DNA of 64,000 nt from Candidatus Kaiserbacteria bacterium CG10_big_fil_rev_8_21_14_0_10_59_10 (GTDB lineage: Bacteria > Patescibacteriota > Minisyncoccia > Phycocordibacterales > UBA2100): assembly GCA_002773285.1 (NCBI GenBank), contig PFBM01000021.1:14312-78311 (forward strand), in the 5' to 3' direction. Made by a program: the position numbers and the translations under genes. This document shows, one piece after another, positions 11,762-49,718 of this stretch; the stretch's first letter is position 1; each line of letters begins with the position of its first letter. A model generated the notes under the pieces. It searched no databases. It was not told the DNA's origin and saw only the letters and a list, made by a program, of their open reading frames with translations.

Positions 11762-12589
11762 ATGCCAAGGTTCGCCACAGTCGAGAAGCGGGTGGGGGAA
11801 ACGCCTCTTCAAGCGCTCGAAGCGTACCGCGCGTCCCGCGCGGAGCTCGGGGACACTCCGATGGCATACGCTGGCCGGCTGGACCCGATGGCGAGCGGCA
11901 CGCTCCTTTTGCTTATCGGCGAGGAGTGCAAACGGGCCGACGCATACTTGAACCTTGATAAAGAGTACGAATTTGAGGTGCTGCTCGGGTACGAGAGCGA
12001 TAGCGGCGACGTATTGGGCATGCCGCGCGAGTGTGCCATCGGGCCGGACGTGAATGATAAAGCCGCGCAGCAGGCAGGCAGGCGGCTCATTGGCACGCAC
12101 GAACTGCCGTATCCCGCGTATTCCTCGAAGGCGGTCGGCGGCAAGGCGCTTTTTCAGCATGCGCATGATGAGACATTGCGGGACATAGAGATACCGACAC
12201 GGCGTATGCGTGTGTATCGAGTCGACTATCTTGGCAGCCGCACGCTATCGTCGACTACGCTGGTGAAGGAAATAATCGCCGATATCGAGCAACTGCATGT
12301 CACGCCGCAGCCGAAGGTGAAAGGGACTGATTTTCGAAAGGGCGAGATACTGGCTGCATGGAAGAATAGACGCCTGCCAGGGCGCACGTGCGTGCTCCTA
12401 AGGTACCGGGCTATTGTGTGCTCGGGCACGTACATACGCTCGCTTGCGCCTCTCGTCGCCCGGCATCTGGGTACGTGCGGACTTGCCCGCTCTATACATC
12501 GTACCGCTCTCGGCCGGTACTACTCGCCGCTCGGCATCGGCTATTGGCGTCCTCATTTCCGACATGCTCAGCGTAGACCCGCGATGTGA
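11762..12589 (+). CDS. truB: TruB-like tRNA pseudouridine synthase
   Basis: YAGRLDPMASGTL, KEYEFEV, YPAYSSK, CSGTYIRSL. Confidence 0.85.
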   Translation: MPRFATVEKRVGETPLQALEAYRASRAELGDTPMAYAGRLDPMASGTLLLLIGEECKRADAYLNLDKEYEFEVLLGYESDSGDVLGMPRECAIGPDVNDKAAQQAGRRLIGTHELPYPAYSSKAVGGKALFQHAHDETLRDIEIPTRRMRVYRVDYLGSRTLSSTTLVKEIIADIEQLHVTPQPKVKGTDFRKGEILAAWKNRRLPGRTCVLLRYRAIVCSGTYIRSLAPLVARHLGTCGLARSIHRTALGRYYSPLGIGYWRPHFRHAQRRPAM

Positions 12590-12682
12590 GACCTCGCGTG
12601 TTGCGGTGTGCTCCTGCTGTGCTATCCCCAGGTAGCGGTAGCGCATGGCTTTGGCAGCCGTAAAAGGCGCTATAGTGCGCGC

Positions 12683-13159
12683 ATGCAAAATACGCAGCAG
12701 ATGCTCCTTTTCCTGCTACGCGTCTTGATGGGATGGTTCTTGTTCTATGCGGGTATAACGAAAGTGCTGAACCCGGAGTGGTCGGCGGCGGGATTTCTGA
12801 ACAATGCCAAGACGTTTCCGGAGTTCTTCCAATTTTTCGCCACGCCGGCGGTATTGCCGCTGACAAATTTCCTCAACGAGTGGGGGCTTACGCTTATCGG
12901 CCTCGCGCTCATGCTGGGAGTCTTCGTACGCTTGAGCGCGATACTCGGCGCCGCGCTGATGGTTTTGTACTATTTCCCGACGCTTGATTTTCCGTATCCG
13001 TCCGTACACACCTTTATCGTAGACGACCACGTGATATATGCGGTCCTGCTCCTGTACCTGGCATGGGTGCGCGCAGGCCGCGTTGTGGGGCTTGAGAAGT
13101 GGCTTTCATCGCACCCTAAAATTATCGCTAATGTTCCTACACTGCGGCGCTTGATCTAA
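12683..13159 (+). CDS. DoxX family membrane protein
   Basis: LLRVLMGWFLFYAGITK, GLALMLGVFVRL, multiple TMs. Confidence 0.85.
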   Translation: MQNTQQMLLFLLRVLMGWFLFYAGITKVLNPEWSAAGFLNNAKTFPEFFQFFATPAVLPLTNFLNEWGLTLIGLALMLGVFVRLSAILGAALMVLYYFPTLDFPYPSVHTFIVDDHVIYAVLLLYLAWVRAGRVVGLEKWLSSHPKIIANVPTLRRLI

Positions 13160-13189
13160 AGCGCGCAGCTTGATGGCACGGGGGAATAC

Positions 13190-13213
13190 GCGCCCGCGGC
13201 GGGCGCCTTTTTG
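13190..13213 (+). terminator. Intrinsic terminator after DoxX
   Basis: gcgcccgc/gcgggcgc stem followed by a T-run. Confidence 0.6.
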
Positions 13214-13299
13214 CGGCGGGTGCGCATGGTGCTTAATCGGCACTACAGAAAGCGGCACGTATAGTGTCACATATACTCACCCGAATGGTCGGCCCATGT

Positions 13300-13632
13300 A
13301 TGAAAATAGAAATTTATTTCAATGATAAGGAACTGGAGCAGCGGGCGTCCTACGACCCGGAGGCGAGGGAGGAGCTAAGGAAGGCCGTCGCGGCAATTGC
13401 CATCTTGCACGCGCGGGATCTCGCTGAGGCGCGCGCACTGGACGAAAAATACGTGCCGCAGCTCGCAACGGCGGGGATGGGCGTGTTCGACCAGGCGTAC
13501 AATGTATACATGAAATATGGAGGCGTATTTGAAGAAACGACCGCGTTCGCGCCGTACTTCGGGTGGTGGGCGCGGCAGGCGATGATCGAGTATATCGGTT
13601 CGATACGCGCGCCAATCACGCGCGTAGAGTAA
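13300..13632 (+). CDS. Stand-alone sigma-70 region 1.2/2-like protein (110 aa; no sigma3/sigma4)
   Basis: DPEAREELRKA ~ GDEEAKRRLAEA; QLATAGMGVFDQAY ~ DLIQEGNMGLMKAV; FAPYFGWWARQAMIEYI ~ FSTYATWWIRQAITRAI. Confidence 0.7.
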   Translation: MKIEIYFNDKELEQRASYDPEAREELRKAVAAIAILHARDLAEARALDEKYVPQLATAGMGVFDQAYNVYMKYGGVFEETTAFAPYFGWWARQAMIEYIGSIRAPITRVE

Positions 13633-13648
13633 GCAAAGCGAGGCCGTG

Positions 13649-14419
13649 CTAGTGTGCGAGGGTAGCGTAGACCACCAAGCGATGGTCATAGGTGCCGAGG
13701 CTGCGAACGTACGACCCCGCGCAGGTTATTACGTGCAGGTGTTTTCCGCCGTCGTTCCTGTTGAAGAGCATATCGGACGTCAGATCCGACAGACGGTGTG
13801 TCTTGGTATGCGTCACTACATACCGAAGCCGGCTGCCGTCTTCAGCTGTCACATATATCTCGTCGCCGGCCTTGACGCGGTGCAGCTCGGAAAACGCGGC
13901 ATATACGTGCGCTGCGAGCACCGCACTGCCCGTGTTGCCGGGCAGGACCCCGTACTTATACCAACCGACGTTATCGGTGCGCCCATCGGGCACATCCATG
14001 TCTCCCTTGTCGTTAATGCCGACCTGCTGGATGGGTGAATTGAGGCCGATGGCCGGCATCTGGACACGTACGGGATATGTGGAAGAGGTAGCGGATAGGG
14101 GTGACGGGCTTGAAGGAACCGGTGTCGCACTCACACCCTCCTCTACTTTTCCTTCCGGAACTGCTGCTCGTGCGACAGATAACGCGACCTCGAGCGTGCC
14201 GTTGGGTGGCGACGAGGCCCCATCCAAAGGCGGCTCGTGTGACGGAATCTCAGCGATGAATGGGGGCAGGTCTAGGGCAATGCCGGAGCGAGCATCATTG
14301 GTAGGAAGCGTTGCGCTGCCGCTACCGGGGTCAAGCAGCGCTGCGTGCGCGCTTGCACCTAGAACGGCGACGCATCCGCATGCAGCTAACAATAGTACTG
14401 TACGCATGAACCGATGCAT
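13649..14419 (-). CDS. Class F sortase
   Basis: VGWYKYGVLPGNTGSAVLAAH, VITCAG, YDHRLVV (H/C/R triad); N-terminal signal or anchor. Confidence 0.9.
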   Translation of the reverse strand: MHRFMRTVLLLAACGCVAVLGASAHAALLDPGSGSATLPTNDARSGIALDLPPFIAEIPSHEPPLDGASSPPNGTLEVALSVARAAVPEGKVEEGVSATPVPSSPSPLSATSSTYPVRVQMPAIGLNSPIQQVGINDKGDMDVPDGRTDNVGWYKYGVLPGNTGSAVLAAHVYAAFSELHRVKAGDEIYVTAEDGSRLRYVVTHTKTHRLSDLTSDMLFNRNDGGKHLHVITCAGSYVRSLGTYDHRLVVYATLAH

Positions 14420-14599
14420 TCTATGGGCACGCCATGTTCATGTCTATATCATTCATGAATCTGAAGAGCTCATGAACCTATGCGGCTACAAAAGCAGCAA
14501 AAAGGGTTTGCACTACGCGTGCGAACTCATCGATTGTCCACACCGCCTCCGGACACCTGCAGCGCTGTCGCGCACGCCGAAGCGCGCTATACTATGCTG

Positions 14600-14884
14600 G
14601 TGGAAGATTTCTTGAAAATGGATATCTTTTTCGTAGTGACGACACTCGTCGTTGCGGTCTTAGGGCTTTTTGCCGCGATCGCCCTTTACTACGTAGTGCG
14701 CATTCTTCGCAATGTCGAGCATATATCACACAATGTCGCCGAGGAGAGTGATAACCTCCGCGCCGATATTGCACAGCTGCGCGAGCGCGTGCGCGCCGAG
14801 GGTTTTCGATTGAAGCACGTCGCCGCATTCGTTCGCTCGCTGTTCGGACGAGCGGCGCGCGTGGCAAAAAAGAAGCGCAAGTAA
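14600..14884 (+). CDS. Single-TM coiled-coil protein (DUF948/YtxG-like)
   Basis: FLKMDIFFVVTT, TM, amphipathic helix; GTG 6 nt after TATACT. Confidence 0.7.
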   Translation: MEDFLKMDIFFVVTTLVVAVLGLFAAIALYYVVRILRNVEHISHNVAEESDNLRADIAQLRERVRAEGFRLKHVAAFVRSLFGRAARVAKKKRK

Positions 14885-14958
14885 TTAATGCGGCTTTCAT
14901 GAGTTGCGCGTAATGCTGTAGTATTCTGAGAGTTATTAGTAACAGTATTACATCACCT

Positions 14959-15378
14959 ATGGTTAAGAAGCGTACGCAAAAAGCGATGGGGATAGGAGCG
15001 GGTCTCGCAGCGGCAGGCGCCGCGGCCGCCGCAGGGTACTATTTTTACGTGAGCAAGGACGCGGCGAAGCATCGTCGCGTTGCCGCGAAGTGGGCGAGTG
15101 GGTTCAAGAAAGAAGTCGTCAAGCAGGCGAAGGCGGTTAAGAACGTGAATAAGACCGCCGTGCTTGCGGCGGTGGATAAGGCGACAGAAATGTATACCAG
15201 GGCACGCAAAACCGATAGAGCGGATATTATGCGCGCTGCCGAGGAGCTGAAGAAAAACTGGCAGCGCGTCGCGCAAGAAGTGCAGGCAGCTGCCGAGAAA
15301 GGGGCTCGTTCCGCTCGCAAAACGGCAAAGAAGACGGCAAAGCGAACTACACGCAAGAAAACCGCAAAGCGCCGGTAA
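14959..15378 (+). CDS. YtxH-like membrane-anchored protein with Lys/Ala/Thr-rich tail
   Basis: GAGLAAAGAAAAAGYYFY anchor; C-terminal KTAKKTAKRTTRKKTAKRR. Confidence 0.75.
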   Translation: MVKKRTQKAMGIGAGLAAAGAAAAAGYYFYVSKDAAKHRRVAAKWASGFKKEVVKQAKAVKNVNKTAVLAAVDKATEMYTRARKTDRADIMRAAEELKKNWQRVAQEVQAAAEKGARSARKTAKKTAKRTTRKKTAKRR

Positions 15379-15482
15379 TGCAGCGGCTTTATAGCTTGGC
15401 ACCTGCGTGCGTATGCTTTACACACGGGGGTGGCGCGGGGCTCTTCGGCCTGCGCCCTCCCGTGCATGCCGTGGCACATTGA

Positions 15483-15680
15483 TCAGTTGTCCGGCGTCGG
15501 CGAGACCGGTGGAACTGTTATGTTCGGTGCCTGCGTTTCCGGCAGGTTTACATCTATGTTCGTGCGCTCTTCCTGCTGCCCCCATAGTGGCCCTCGCAGG
15601 AACCACACGAGGGCTCCGACGACGATGATAATAAGCAACACTATGAGCACTGTGTTGACGCCTGAGTTGTCTCTGTCCAT
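15483..15680 (-). CDS. Small single-TM protein (65 aa)
   Basis: VLIVLLIIIVVGALVWFL TM followed by NIDVNLP and a Pro-rich tail. Confidence 0.7.
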   Translation of the reverse strand: MDRDNSGVNTVLIVLLIIIVVGALVWFLRGPLWGQQEERTNIDVNLPETQAPNITVPPVSPTPDN

Positions 15681-15902
15681 ATAAGAACCGCGTATCTATG
15701 ATAAATAAAAGCGGATCTGCCCCGTGCGGTGCGCGGAACCCCGCATAGTGATGGTTGCACTACAAACTGAAGACGCCATGAAGTGCGGGCGTGCGCCACA
15801 GCTGCATATATCCGCTCAATATACCTTGCACAACGCCTGCGCCTCGTTCATATTTTGCACATTAACGCGCACGCACAATGCGGTGCGTTATGCATACTTT
15901 CT

Positions 15903-16277
15903 ATGATAGAAAGCGAGCAGCGGGGTAGACGTACCATTGACCTGGATGAGATCCGGGCATGGGCGGAGGAGCGCGGGGGAGTCCCCGCGATAGCCGAGCG
16001 CGCCAAAGATGCAGAAGGCGGAGACCTGCTACGCATCGTCTTTGATGACACGGAGAAACACGTGCGGGAAGTTCCCTGGGAAGATTTCTTCGCCGTGTTC
16101 GAGGCAAATAAGCTTGTGTTTGTATACGACGCTCCCGTGGCAGGAGAGCCGTTGAGCTTGGAGCACGAATTTGCTGAGCGCACGACTGCCGACATTGAGA
16201 GTGCGGAACCACTGGAAGAGTACGGCGAAGACGATTGGCTTGATGAGGGAGAAGAAGAGCTCGAGGAGCTGCTTTGA
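15903..16277 (+). CDS. Conserved hypothetical protein with acidic tail
   Basis: TIDLDEIRAWAEERGGVPA, LLRIVF, VPWEDFFAVFEANKLVFVY; resembles a widespread uncharacterised small domain. Confidence 0.75.
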   Translation: MIESEQRGRRTIDLDEIRAWAEERGGVPAIAERAKDAEGGDLLRIVFDDTEKHVREVPWEDFFAVFEANKLVFVYDAPVAGEPLSLEHEFAERTTADIESAEPLEEYGEDDWLDEGEEELEELL

Positions 16278-16397
16278 GGGATTCACCCCTCTTTCACCGC
16301 GGGGCCGGCATACTTATCGTCAGGTCGATGTTACGAGCCAAACAAGATTTGAGCTAGTGACATGATTACAAACTCGTCACACGAACGTTAACCGCAG

Positions 16398-16655
16398 ATG
16401 ATCCGTATGACCATGCTCAAAAGAATTATAAGCGTGTCTGCTCCTCTTGCAGCCCTTGCAGCCGCGGGTATTGCGAATGCGCAAACAGCGACACAGACCG
16501 CGACCACAGCAACGCCTACACCCGGCATTCCGGAGACCGGCGTAGGCGGGGATATGGTGATGAATCTTGTCCTATTGGGCGCAGCAGCGCTCATAGCAGG
16601 CGCAGGCGCCATGTACCTGTATGTGACGCGCTCGCGCGGGGCAGACAGGGTGTAG
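16398..16655 (+). CDS. Minimal sortase substrate: signal peptide, Thr-rich peptide, IPETG sorting signal
   Basis: Signal peptide ending ANA; IPETG, hydrophobic TM and RSR tail; directly upstream of a sortase. Confidence 0.8.
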   Translation: MIRMTMLKRIISVSAPLAALAAAGIANAQTATQTATTATPTPGIPETGVGGDMVMNLVLLGAAALIAGAGAMYLYVTRSRGADRV

Positions 16656-16686
16656 CCATGATCGTTAGCCCGGCGTCTGCGCGCGT

Positions 16687-17427
16687 ATGAGGATACGTAC
16701 GCACAGCAGAGAAGTGGCAGCGGCAGTTCTTGCCGCTGCCATTCTCGTAGGAGGCACGGCGGCGGTCCGCACGCTGCTGGTTCTGCCTGCCTCGGCGCTT
16801 CTCGTGCCGTACCCAACGGAAGCTCATGAGAAGAACGACGCGTTCGGGCTCATACGGTTTGTTACAGAGACAGCAACGCCGTTTAGCGGTGCGCAAGGCG
16901 CGTCGCGAGCGGAGAGACCGTTCCGGGCGCGGCCGGCTGCCTCAGAGAGGAATGGCGCATCGGAGGCGATGGGAACGGCGCAGCCCATGCGGCTCCAAAT
17001 ACCGCATATACGAGTCGACGCGCCGGTCGTGAGGGTCGGCATCAACGGGGTTGGCAATATGGCAACGCCATCGTCGTTCAGCGAGGTCGGCTGGTATCGG
17101 CATGGCCCGCGACCCGGCGAGCCGGGAAGCGCCGTCCTTGCCGGGCATGTAGACAATGCACTCGGGTTTCCCGGCGTCTTTAAGAGATTGGGTGAGTTGC
17201 GGGAAGGAGATGTGCTGTATATCACTGTGGCTGATGGCACTGCTCTGCGATTTGTTGTCGCCTCTGTGGAAACGCATCCATATAATGACGCACCTACGAA
17301 CGAGATTTTTTCGACGGGCGGCGCGCCGCGTGTCACGCTTATCACCTGTGCCGGCTCCTGGCTGCGCAGTGCCGGCACATACGATACGCGGCTCGTCGTC
17401 ACGGCATACTTGGCGGATGATAAGTAA
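16687..17427 (+). CDS. Class F sortase
   Basis: VGWYRHGPRPGEPGSAVLAGHVD, LITCAG, YDTRLVV. Confidence 0.92.
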   Translation: MRIRTHSREVAAAVLAAAILVGGTAAVRTLLVLPASALLVPYPTEAHEKNDAFGLIRFVTETATPFSGAQGASRAERPFRARPAASERNGASEAMGTAQPMRLQIPHIRVDAPVVRVGINGVGNMATPSSFSEVGWYRHGPRPGEPGSAVLAGHVDNALGFPGVFKRLGELREGDVLYITVADGTALRFVVASVETHPYNDAPTNEIFSTGGAPRVTLITCAGSWLRSAGTYDTRLVVTAYLADDK

Positions 17428-48695: not shown

Positions 48696-49718
48696 ATGCT
48701 TCAATTCACTACGCGCAGCGTCACGAAAGAGCTCCTTTCCTCTCTGCCTGAACGCTCACGGCGAGTCGTTGCAGAGCGTTTTGGCCTCGGCACGAGCGCG
48801 CGGCGGCGCACGCTGGAGGCAATTGGCAAGGAGTATGGGGTGACACGGGAGCGCATACGCCAGATAGAGAACCACTCCCTCGCAATGGTCCGAGAATCGG
48901 AGGCATACGGCCGCAACATGCACGCGATCGATGACCTCAAGCGCGCCGTGCATGAGCTCGGCAGCATCGTATCCGAGACGGCTGCTCTGGCCGCTCTCGC
49001 TACGTCGGAGGCCGAACGCAACCATGTGCTCTTTCTTCTCACGGTAGGGCACCACTTCGAGCACAGGCCGGATAATCCCGACTTTCACGCACGCTGGCAC
49101 GTGGACCCGGCGCTTGCCGAGGCGGTAGAGCGCTCGCTTTCGCGCTTGCATGAGGAGCTGAGCGCCGAGCGGCTCGTTCCAGAGAGTGATTTTGTGCAGC
49201 AGTTCGTACGCATTCTGAAAGAGGAGGGTGTGCGTGCACGTTCCGAAGAGGCGCCGTCTCGCTGGCTTGCCATTGCCAAGCGTATTGCGCGCAACCCGCT
49301 TGGTGAGTGGGGTAGGAGCGATTCGCCGCACGTGCGCATCAAGAACACGCGTGACTTTGCGTACCTCACACTGAAGCGTCACGGCTCACCCATGCACTTT
49401 ACCGAAGTGGCGAAGGGCATTCGCGAGCTGTTCGATAGGAACGCGCACCCCGCAACAACGCACAATGAACTTATTAAGGACAGCCGATTTGTGTTGGTCG
49501 GGCGCGGCCTGTACGCCCTTAAGGAATGGGGGTACGCGCCCGGCGTCGTGCGCGAGGTCATCAAGAACATCATCGCGGAAGAGGGTCCGCTGTTGCGCGA
49601 AGACATAATCGAGCGTGTGAAGCGCGAGCGCTACGTCAAAGACGCAACTATTGCCGTGAATCTCCAGAGCGACGCCTTCACGCGCGGCGCGGACGGCCGC
49701 TACAGCATCGCCTCATAG
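48696..49718 (+). CDS. Sigma-70 region-4 HTH fused to HARE-HTH/RNAP-delta-like winged helices
   Basis: RFGL...TLEAIGKEYGVTRERIRQIE; PMHFTEVA, HNELIKDSRFVLVGRGLYAL. Confidence 0.8.
   Translation: MLQFTTRSVTKELLSSLPERSRRVVAERFGLGTSARRRTLEAIGKEYGVTRERIRQIENHSLAMVRESEAYGRNMHAIDDLKRAVHELGSIVSETAALAALATSEAERNHVLFLLTVGHHFEHRPDNPDFHARWHVDPALAEAVERSLSRLHEELSAERLVPESDFVQQFVRILKEEGVRARSEEAPSRWLAIAKRIARNPLGEWGRSDSPHVRIKNTRDFAYLTLKRHGSPMHFTEVAKGIRELFDRNAHPATTHNELIKDSRFVLVGRGLYALKEWGYAPGVVREVIKNIIAEEGPLLREDIIERVKRERYVKDATIAVNLQSDAFTRGADGRYSIAS

Follow-up and report, generated by a model that had tools for sequence, protein, structure and literature searches.

A family of free-standing sigma-70 domain 2 proteins in Patescibacteria, possibly minimal sigma subunits

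A complete gene at 13300..13632 (+) of the window, the 64,000 nucleotide stretch of Candidatus Kaiserbacteria DNA that was analysed, encodes P0001, a free-standing sigma-70 domain 2 protein of 110 aa. The gene is real and its product is homologous to sigma-70 domain 2. The family to which it belongs is large, apparently undescribed, and found in ultra-small bacteria. As judged from the family alignment, the residues that melt the -10 element are among the best conserved columns, and the core-binding positions of sigma-70 are only average. P0001 probably still meets -10-like DNA on RNA polymerase, and we infer both its binding to the polymerase and the direction of its effect. The explanation preferred here, tentatively, is that P0001 may be a minimal, gp55-like alternative sigma subunit with a predicted helper, and not a broken leftover.

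Results

The original prediction described a complete 110-aa ORF on the forward strand at 13300-13632, containing the FAPYFGWWARQA segment and ending 16 nt short of a convergent sortase, and this was confirmed. The sortase ORF (13649..14419, -) ends at 13649; its best model is class F, with a score below that model's cut-off. A frameshifted continuation into sigma4 was already discounted in that prediction, and there are no sigma4 profile matches in the six frames of 12001-17000. At 0.24, the codon score of the P0001 gene is that of a coding sequence (0.14 +/- 0.12 for long ORFs, and -0.36 to 0.09 in the remaining five frames). The start is ambiguous, since the protein would be 115 aa from ATG 13285 and 122 aa from GTG 13264; ATG 13285 fits the leaderless peak at 6-8 nt and ATG 13300 fits the N-terminal length of the family. 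A sigma-70-type -10 hexamer, TATACT (13272..13277, +), is 7 nt before ATG 13285 in leaderless geometry and is a putative promoter element; a second -10 hexamer is present at 13260-13265 (+).

The upstream neighbour is a gene for a DoxX family membrane protein (12608..13159, +), which is not conserved as a neighbour. As read from the sequence, a 7-bp GC hairpin followed by a T run (13190..13212, +) is its likely terminator, in which case the P0001 gene would be its own transcription unit; RNAfold prefers an overlapping longer stem here. The window has two sortases (13649-14419 and 16687-17427) 2.3 kb apart among small membrane proteins, the first being closest to class F. Besides P0001, the host has one RpoD and two ECF-type sigmas. 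The rpoC, dnaG and rpoD genes are consecutive on one strand after rpoB (G000:C13:2779-9703).

On its own, P0001 has no Pfam match, not reaching the gathering cut-off of PF04542 (Sigma70_r2), and its one NCBIfam match is weak (TIGR02937, E 0.24), thus the resemblance to sigma factors seen by eye is not significant alone. There is likewise no PHROGs match and no significant PDB match from the single sequence. Among 8684 ORFs of its own genome the best non-self match is RpoD (E 0.88). Single-sequence searches returned only P0001 itself and no longer form, and an Atlas feature search led to short proteins in Sigma70_r2-bearing clusters. With the single protein as query, two true relatives were found in 150 genomes of the host's taxonomic family, in G158 (59%) and G070 (31%), and a profile was iterated from these, with E. 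coli numbering taken from the PDB alignment.

The iterated profile matched RpoD, SigA and RpoS in the PDB (best E 8.5e-5). Comparison of 114 family rows with 49 RpoD-like rows by hhalign gave a probability of 98.9 and an E-value of 1.5e-17 over residues 7-103, so that the homology spans regions 2.1 to 2.4. The AlphaFold model of P0001, from a 20-row alignment, has the helical fold of sigma2 with a pLDDT of 85.9. All 46 Foldseek rows listed are sigma chains or sigma2 fragments (TM 0.45-0.64, E 0.15-0.7, none with E <= 0.001). The profile and structure comparisons proposed in the original prediction thus both point to sigma domain 2. Close relatives of P0001 match Pfam Sigma70_r2 weakly (E 0.007-0.075), and RpoD-like short members pass the cut-off.

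P0001 has a helix before region 2.1 (residues 10-15), the region 2.1 helix (20-44), region 2.2 (49-74), an enlarged loop (71-82) and regions 2.3-2.4 (83-103). The similarity originally proposed, to regions 1.2 through 2.4, holds for regions 2.1 to 2.4 and the helix preceding 2.1; the first region 1.2 helix is absent, with a loose match in just 1 of the 114 family rows. The region 2.3/2.4 signature is kept as described, with F83, Y86, W89, W90, R92 and Q93 (13546..13578, +) aligned to F427, Y430, W433, W434, R436 and Q437 of sigma-70. Of the features of group 1/2 sigmas, P0001 therefore has Y430, W433, W434 and Q437, and lacks regions 1.2, 3 and 4 on the same chain as well as the core-binding residues D403, Q406, E407 and N409. 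Nor does it have the sigma2 and sigma4 on one chain that characterize group 3/ECF sigmas.

The family comprises 187 clusters (50% identity) at E <= 0.001 and 91 at E <= 1e-10, in a HMMER search of 1.84 billion representatives. In 90 of the 91 best clusters the length is 81-153 aa. The remaining one, P0046 (267 aa), has an N-terminal domain of unassigned type fused to the sigma2-only domain at its C-terminus. Full-length sigmas appear in the HMMER list only from E 8e-7 down, and the named relatives of P0001 are Patescibacteria. Because entries in protein databases may be truncated where a contig ends, the DNA of copies was examined, and an in-contig stop was found 10-30 codons after Q437 in all 30 distinct copies (29 loci), which, as these were chosen by a short tail, is evidence for intact ends and not for the absence of long forms. 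At E <= 1e-22, the family is present in 10 of 400 genomes of the host's order. The unpublished genome G397 enters only into this figure and into the copy and locus counts; without it these are 9 of 399, 29 copies and 28 loci. Neither metagenomes nor viral contigs yielded a relative in pattern scans with alignment A4, made of two sequences, and alignment A5 yielded none in viral contigs.

The orthologue in G158 is intact and syntenic, in the same chromosomal region with homologues of the sortase and of the genes at 14480 and 14959 downstream; the sortase there is one gene further on. Over 93 codons, pS between the two genes is 0.81 (saturated) and pN is 0.25, a ratio of 0.31 (bootstrap 0.21-0.43). 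That P0001 is what remains of a decaying full-length sigma gene is therefore refuted and has next to no probability: rarity and patchiness, with 2 of 150 genomes of the host's taxonomic family positive by single-protein query, would fit decay, but the end point is fixed across the family, the pN/pS ratio is 0.31 and the G158 copy is intact and in synteny. Neither of the two outcomes that the original prediction had set against itself, a lack of structural match to sigma domain 2 or full-length homologues with neutral evolution, was found. P0001 is a stand-alone, selected sigma domain 2 protein with short homologues.

In a tree of 108 columns, with an arbitrary root, the short proteins are arranged as a grade, with RpoD-like ones at one end and very divergent ones at the other. 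P0001 is in a supported group of six rows (99/98), and little else is resolved by this number of columns. RpoD-like sigma2-only proteins of approximately 100-126 aa (L081:127-507, L082:4611-4991; P0134, P0153) take a position in the tree between RpoD and the divergent family, linking the two; P0134 and P0153, those of them that were tested, pass the Pfam cut-off. At the C-terminus of one tight subclade (L050:5436-5846; P0009-P0019) is a conserved CxxC/His tail that could bind a metal; Y430 is replaced by F in this subclade.

Among the 114 family rows, F427 is present in 113, W433 in 109, Y430 in 107 (F in 7), an aromatic residue at 434 in 107, R or K at 436 in 102, Q437 in 85 and Y at 419 in 104. 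By a weighted score that gives an advantage to rare residues (W and Y, for example), the first four of 92 columns are W433, F427, Y430 and 419, with W434 ranked 6, Q437 12 and R436 15. All five DNA-facing residues are kept in 76 of the 114 rows, P0001 among them. Y430 is described as the stack for -11A, W433 as the wedge and Q437 as the reader of -12 (PMC4496690), and F419 and F427 are described as structural (10.1101/2020.09.07.285775). The column averages are 0.65 for the DNA face, 0.30 for D403/Q406/E407/N409, described as core-binding positions of sigma-70 in the latter source, and 0.30 for all columns. P0001 has Q, T, A and M at these four positions. Across the 114 rows an acidic residue is found at D403 in 62 and at M413 in 68; Q406 is kept in 8 and E407 in 6. 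From 419 to 427 the intervening loop has 10-19 aa, versus 7 in RpoD; N383, R385 and T429 are changed, and sigma3 and sigma4 are absent.

These patterns bear on two other readings. The original prediction had suggested competition for core RNA polymerase. A pure core decoy without DNA contact would suit the absence of sigma3 and sigma4, but is very improbable because the conservation is the reverse of what it predicts, with the DNA-reading face conserved and the core-binding face average. Action away from RNA polymerase, P0001 binding single-stranded nucleic acid or protein, for example as a decoy for an anti-sigma or other sigma2-binding regulator, has a low probability. It would be consistent with the diverged region 2.2 surface, the weak binding of -10 ssDNA described for free sigma2 (PMC12000874), the two ECF sigmas of the genome and the HisKA_7TM kinases near several loci. 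However, the residues kept (W433, Q437) are of group 1/2 type rather than ECF type, and graded intermediates link the family to RpoD.

Many genes of the host genome (G000) look leaderless, with -10 hexamers that peak 6-8 nt before the ATG and have a TG extension. Crude gene calls gave 412 genes with free upstream DNA, of which 158 have TAnAnT (61 expected) and 81 have TGnTAnnnT (14.6 expected); TTG is at -35 spacing in 20 of 128 sites (6.8 expected). Extended -10 elements are described as being read by sigma3 (PMC4598750), which is part of RpoD and absent from P0001, so the extended -10 promoters of the host are explained by RpoD. The '-10-only' promoters on which P0001 had been proposed to act are of this kind, with some -35 signal, and that proposal is not sustained. 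Upstream of 28 family copies or 15 partner genes there is no family-specific promoter motif; several of them have ordinary RpoD-type elements.

A sigma4 plus HARE-HTH (delta-like) protein is encoded at 48696..49718 (+), 35 kb from P0001. It had been proposed as a partner in trans, and it is possible to see P0001 as half of a split sigma that takes its sigma4 from this protein. It is the genome's only spare sigma4, proteins of its type are near-universal and so available to any incoming sigma2 cassette, and its orthologue is the head-to-head neighbour of one distant family member. Nevertheless, such a split sigma is improbable. The 48696-49718 protein is a core gene, found in 99 of 101 genomes of the host's order versus 10 of 400 for the family, and thus is not a dedicated partner; the two genes are far apart in the window, and adjacency is seen at 1 of 29 loci. 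No dedicated, co-inherited sigma4-bearing partner was found: a local sigma4 profile detected no sigma4 gene in the fetched flanks, several of them short, of 28 of the 29 loci. The sole case is L084:3280-4786, where a distant sigma2-only gene is head to head with a sigma4/HARE-HTH gene.

The surrounding island contains DoxX, two sortases, small membrane proteins, a phosphoribosyltransferase, a Glu/Leu/Phe/Val dehydrogenase and a glycosyltransferase 20 protein. Control of a stress/envelope island by P0001, as suggested earlier, is unsupported. Among 28 family loci, neighbours are shared in one clade only, and a match to the island gene at 14480 was found in 12 of 38 genus genomes (two of the matches with stops and one more weak), in none of which was a P0001 homologue found by single-protein query. 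HisKA_7TM kinases (L044, L045, L047, L049) and radical SAM genes (L045, L046, L048) recur within a few kb of family members, a count that does not take chance frequency into account.

The shared neighbour of the one clade is small. Just upstream and on the same strand of 15 of the 29 distinct sigma2 copies is a gene for a mostly acidic protein of 55-65 aa (L046:872-1051, L125:5728-5919, L099:5749-5931 and 12 more), found only directly upstream of that clade's sigma2-only genes. It has a strong Shine-Dalgarno site, often TTGAC and -10 elements, and in most cases is separated from the sigma2 gene by a hairpin. All 15 copies are in one supported clade of 22 rows (99/95) that excludes P0001 and is over-sampled, since its pattern drove the searches for relatives. 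Of 401 genomes of the order, 5 were matched by the small-protein profile, always with a sigma2 gene as the immediate neighbour, and 396 were not. Because four of these five had contributed rows to the profile, G296 is the one independent find. No Pfam family covers the protein, which was not found in the genome of P0001 (best E 2.6). It was considered as the missing region 1.2 helix and rejected, with no match to RpoD and a profile probability of 2.2. It is a candidate anti-sigma or co-factor. The small gene and sigma2 unit is tandemly duplicated at L112:3633-7652, and L109 has two divergent units 5 kb apart.

Discussion

Sigma2 is described as binding -10 ssDNA weakly, gaining affinity on the beta' clamp helices and melting no duplex without core (PMC12000874). 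As sigma2 melts DNA only on core, melting residues kept under selection most simply imply a state bound to RNA polymerase. As a minimal sigma subunit, P0001 would bind core RNA polymerase at the beta' clamp helices and, relying on the -10 element only, would open a small number of promoters. With its region 2.2 surface changed, docking may be weak or helper-dependent. The longer loop between 2.2 and 2.3, with the changes at N383, R385 and T429, suggests a -10 preference in which T-12/A-11 is kept and the downstream part differs. Efficient initiation would need a helper or supercoiling, as with T4 gp55; no helper was identified for P0001.

Several points count against a minimal sigma. Loss of sigma3 and sigma4 should impair the initiation-competent state, as described in PMC12000874, and D403, Q406, E407 and N409 are replaced by Q, T, A and M in columns no better conserved than average. 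The sigma4 gene missing from the fetched flanks of 28 of 29 loci, the lack of a family-specific promoter motif, the structural role of F419 and F427 and the bias of the conservation score also count against it. Changes at 403-409 are, however, tolerated: all four positions are described as substituted in Hodgkinia RpoD (10.1101/2020.09.07.285775), and Q406 or E407 is missing in some full-length sigma-like proteins. A complex prediction for P0001 (114 rows) with the cognate beta' clamp (358 aa, 30 rows) gave 0.00 and 0.30, versus a mark of 0.32, the controls not having been folded.

The same conserved residues, without sigma3 and sigma4, would also be needed by a sequence-aware transcription brake, which is the chief competing reading and a somewhat unlikely one. 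Here P0001 would hold the clamp helices against RpoD or NusG and clamp -10-like non-template DNA, with dead-end open complexes or pauses as the result and the small upstream protein of the sister clade as a possible antidote. Sigma and NusG-family factors are described as acting through the same beta' helices (PMC12000874), and the strong Shine-Dalgarno site and hairpin before the sigma2 gene in many copies form a layout that would give an excess of the partner. Against this, no natural sigma2-only inhibitor was found in the literature searched, the clade of P0001 has no partner gene, and a competitor should keep its core-binding face better than is observed. Initiation is favoured over a brake because the natural sigma2-type subunits that are known, in the split sigmas gp55/gp33, SigO-RsoA and Tn916 Sig7-8, are initiators (10.64898/2026.10.01.756105; PMC10141391).

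It is conceivable, if unlikely, that Patescibacteria carry a modular sigma system, in which mobile domain-2-only cassettes reprogramme RNA polymerase via the -10 element, alone or with the near-universal sigma4/delta-like protein, and to which one clade adds its own anti-sigma of approximately 60 aa. If so, these bacteria would have a new layer of regulation and the smallest natural sigma of any cell. If P0001 is instead an inhibitor, it would be a new kind of RNA polymerase regulator. Isolated sigma2 has precedents in the fragments of structural and biochemical studies and in a few split sigmas, of which it forms one half. What is new is a natural, selected, stand-alone cellular sigma2 family of at least 187 clusters, together with the dedicated upstream gene of approximately 60 aa in the sister clade. 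No published description of such a family was found in the result listings, with most subscription papers outside the search, and nothing on CPR sigma factors was found in PMC12641261. The family makes it testable with natural proteins how little sigma suffices for promoter-specific initiation, and points to an unstudied route of transcription regulation in minimal-genome bacteria.

Among known systems, P0001 resembles domain 2 of the group 1/2 sigma-70 factors (RpoD/SigA/RpoS; PF04542) in its fold, helix order and F427/Y430/W433/W434/R436/Q437. Unlike these, it has no region 1.1, first 1.2 helix, sigma3, 3.2 or sigma4, D403/Q406/E407/N409/M413 are replaced, the 419-427 loop is 10-19 aa in the family rather than 7, and it is below the Pfam cut-off. 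It shares with T4 gp55, which acts with gp33 and the sliding clamp, the character of a sigma2-type subunit without sigma4, and gp55 (7d7c_F) is among the 46 fold hits listed. The P0001 gene differs in being cellular, shorter and without a known co-activator, and no significant similarity to gp55 was found. In Bacillus SigO-RsoA and Tn916 Sig7-Sig8 the two subunit genes are adjacent. Unlike these dedicated pairs, the family has no accompanying sigma4 gene; the likeness is that sigma regions 2 and 4 are described as being on separate chains, and gp55 is itself described as half of a split sigma (10.64898/2026.10.01.756105). ShbA (9isn) was dropped as a precedent, being described as an ECF sigma. 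The multicopy FliA-like proteins of phytoplasmas, compared here by description only, resemble sigma-28/ECF factors, unlike the family, but they too are sigma ORFs with region 2 only, and they accompany a normal RpoD in a reduced genome (PMC4493692).
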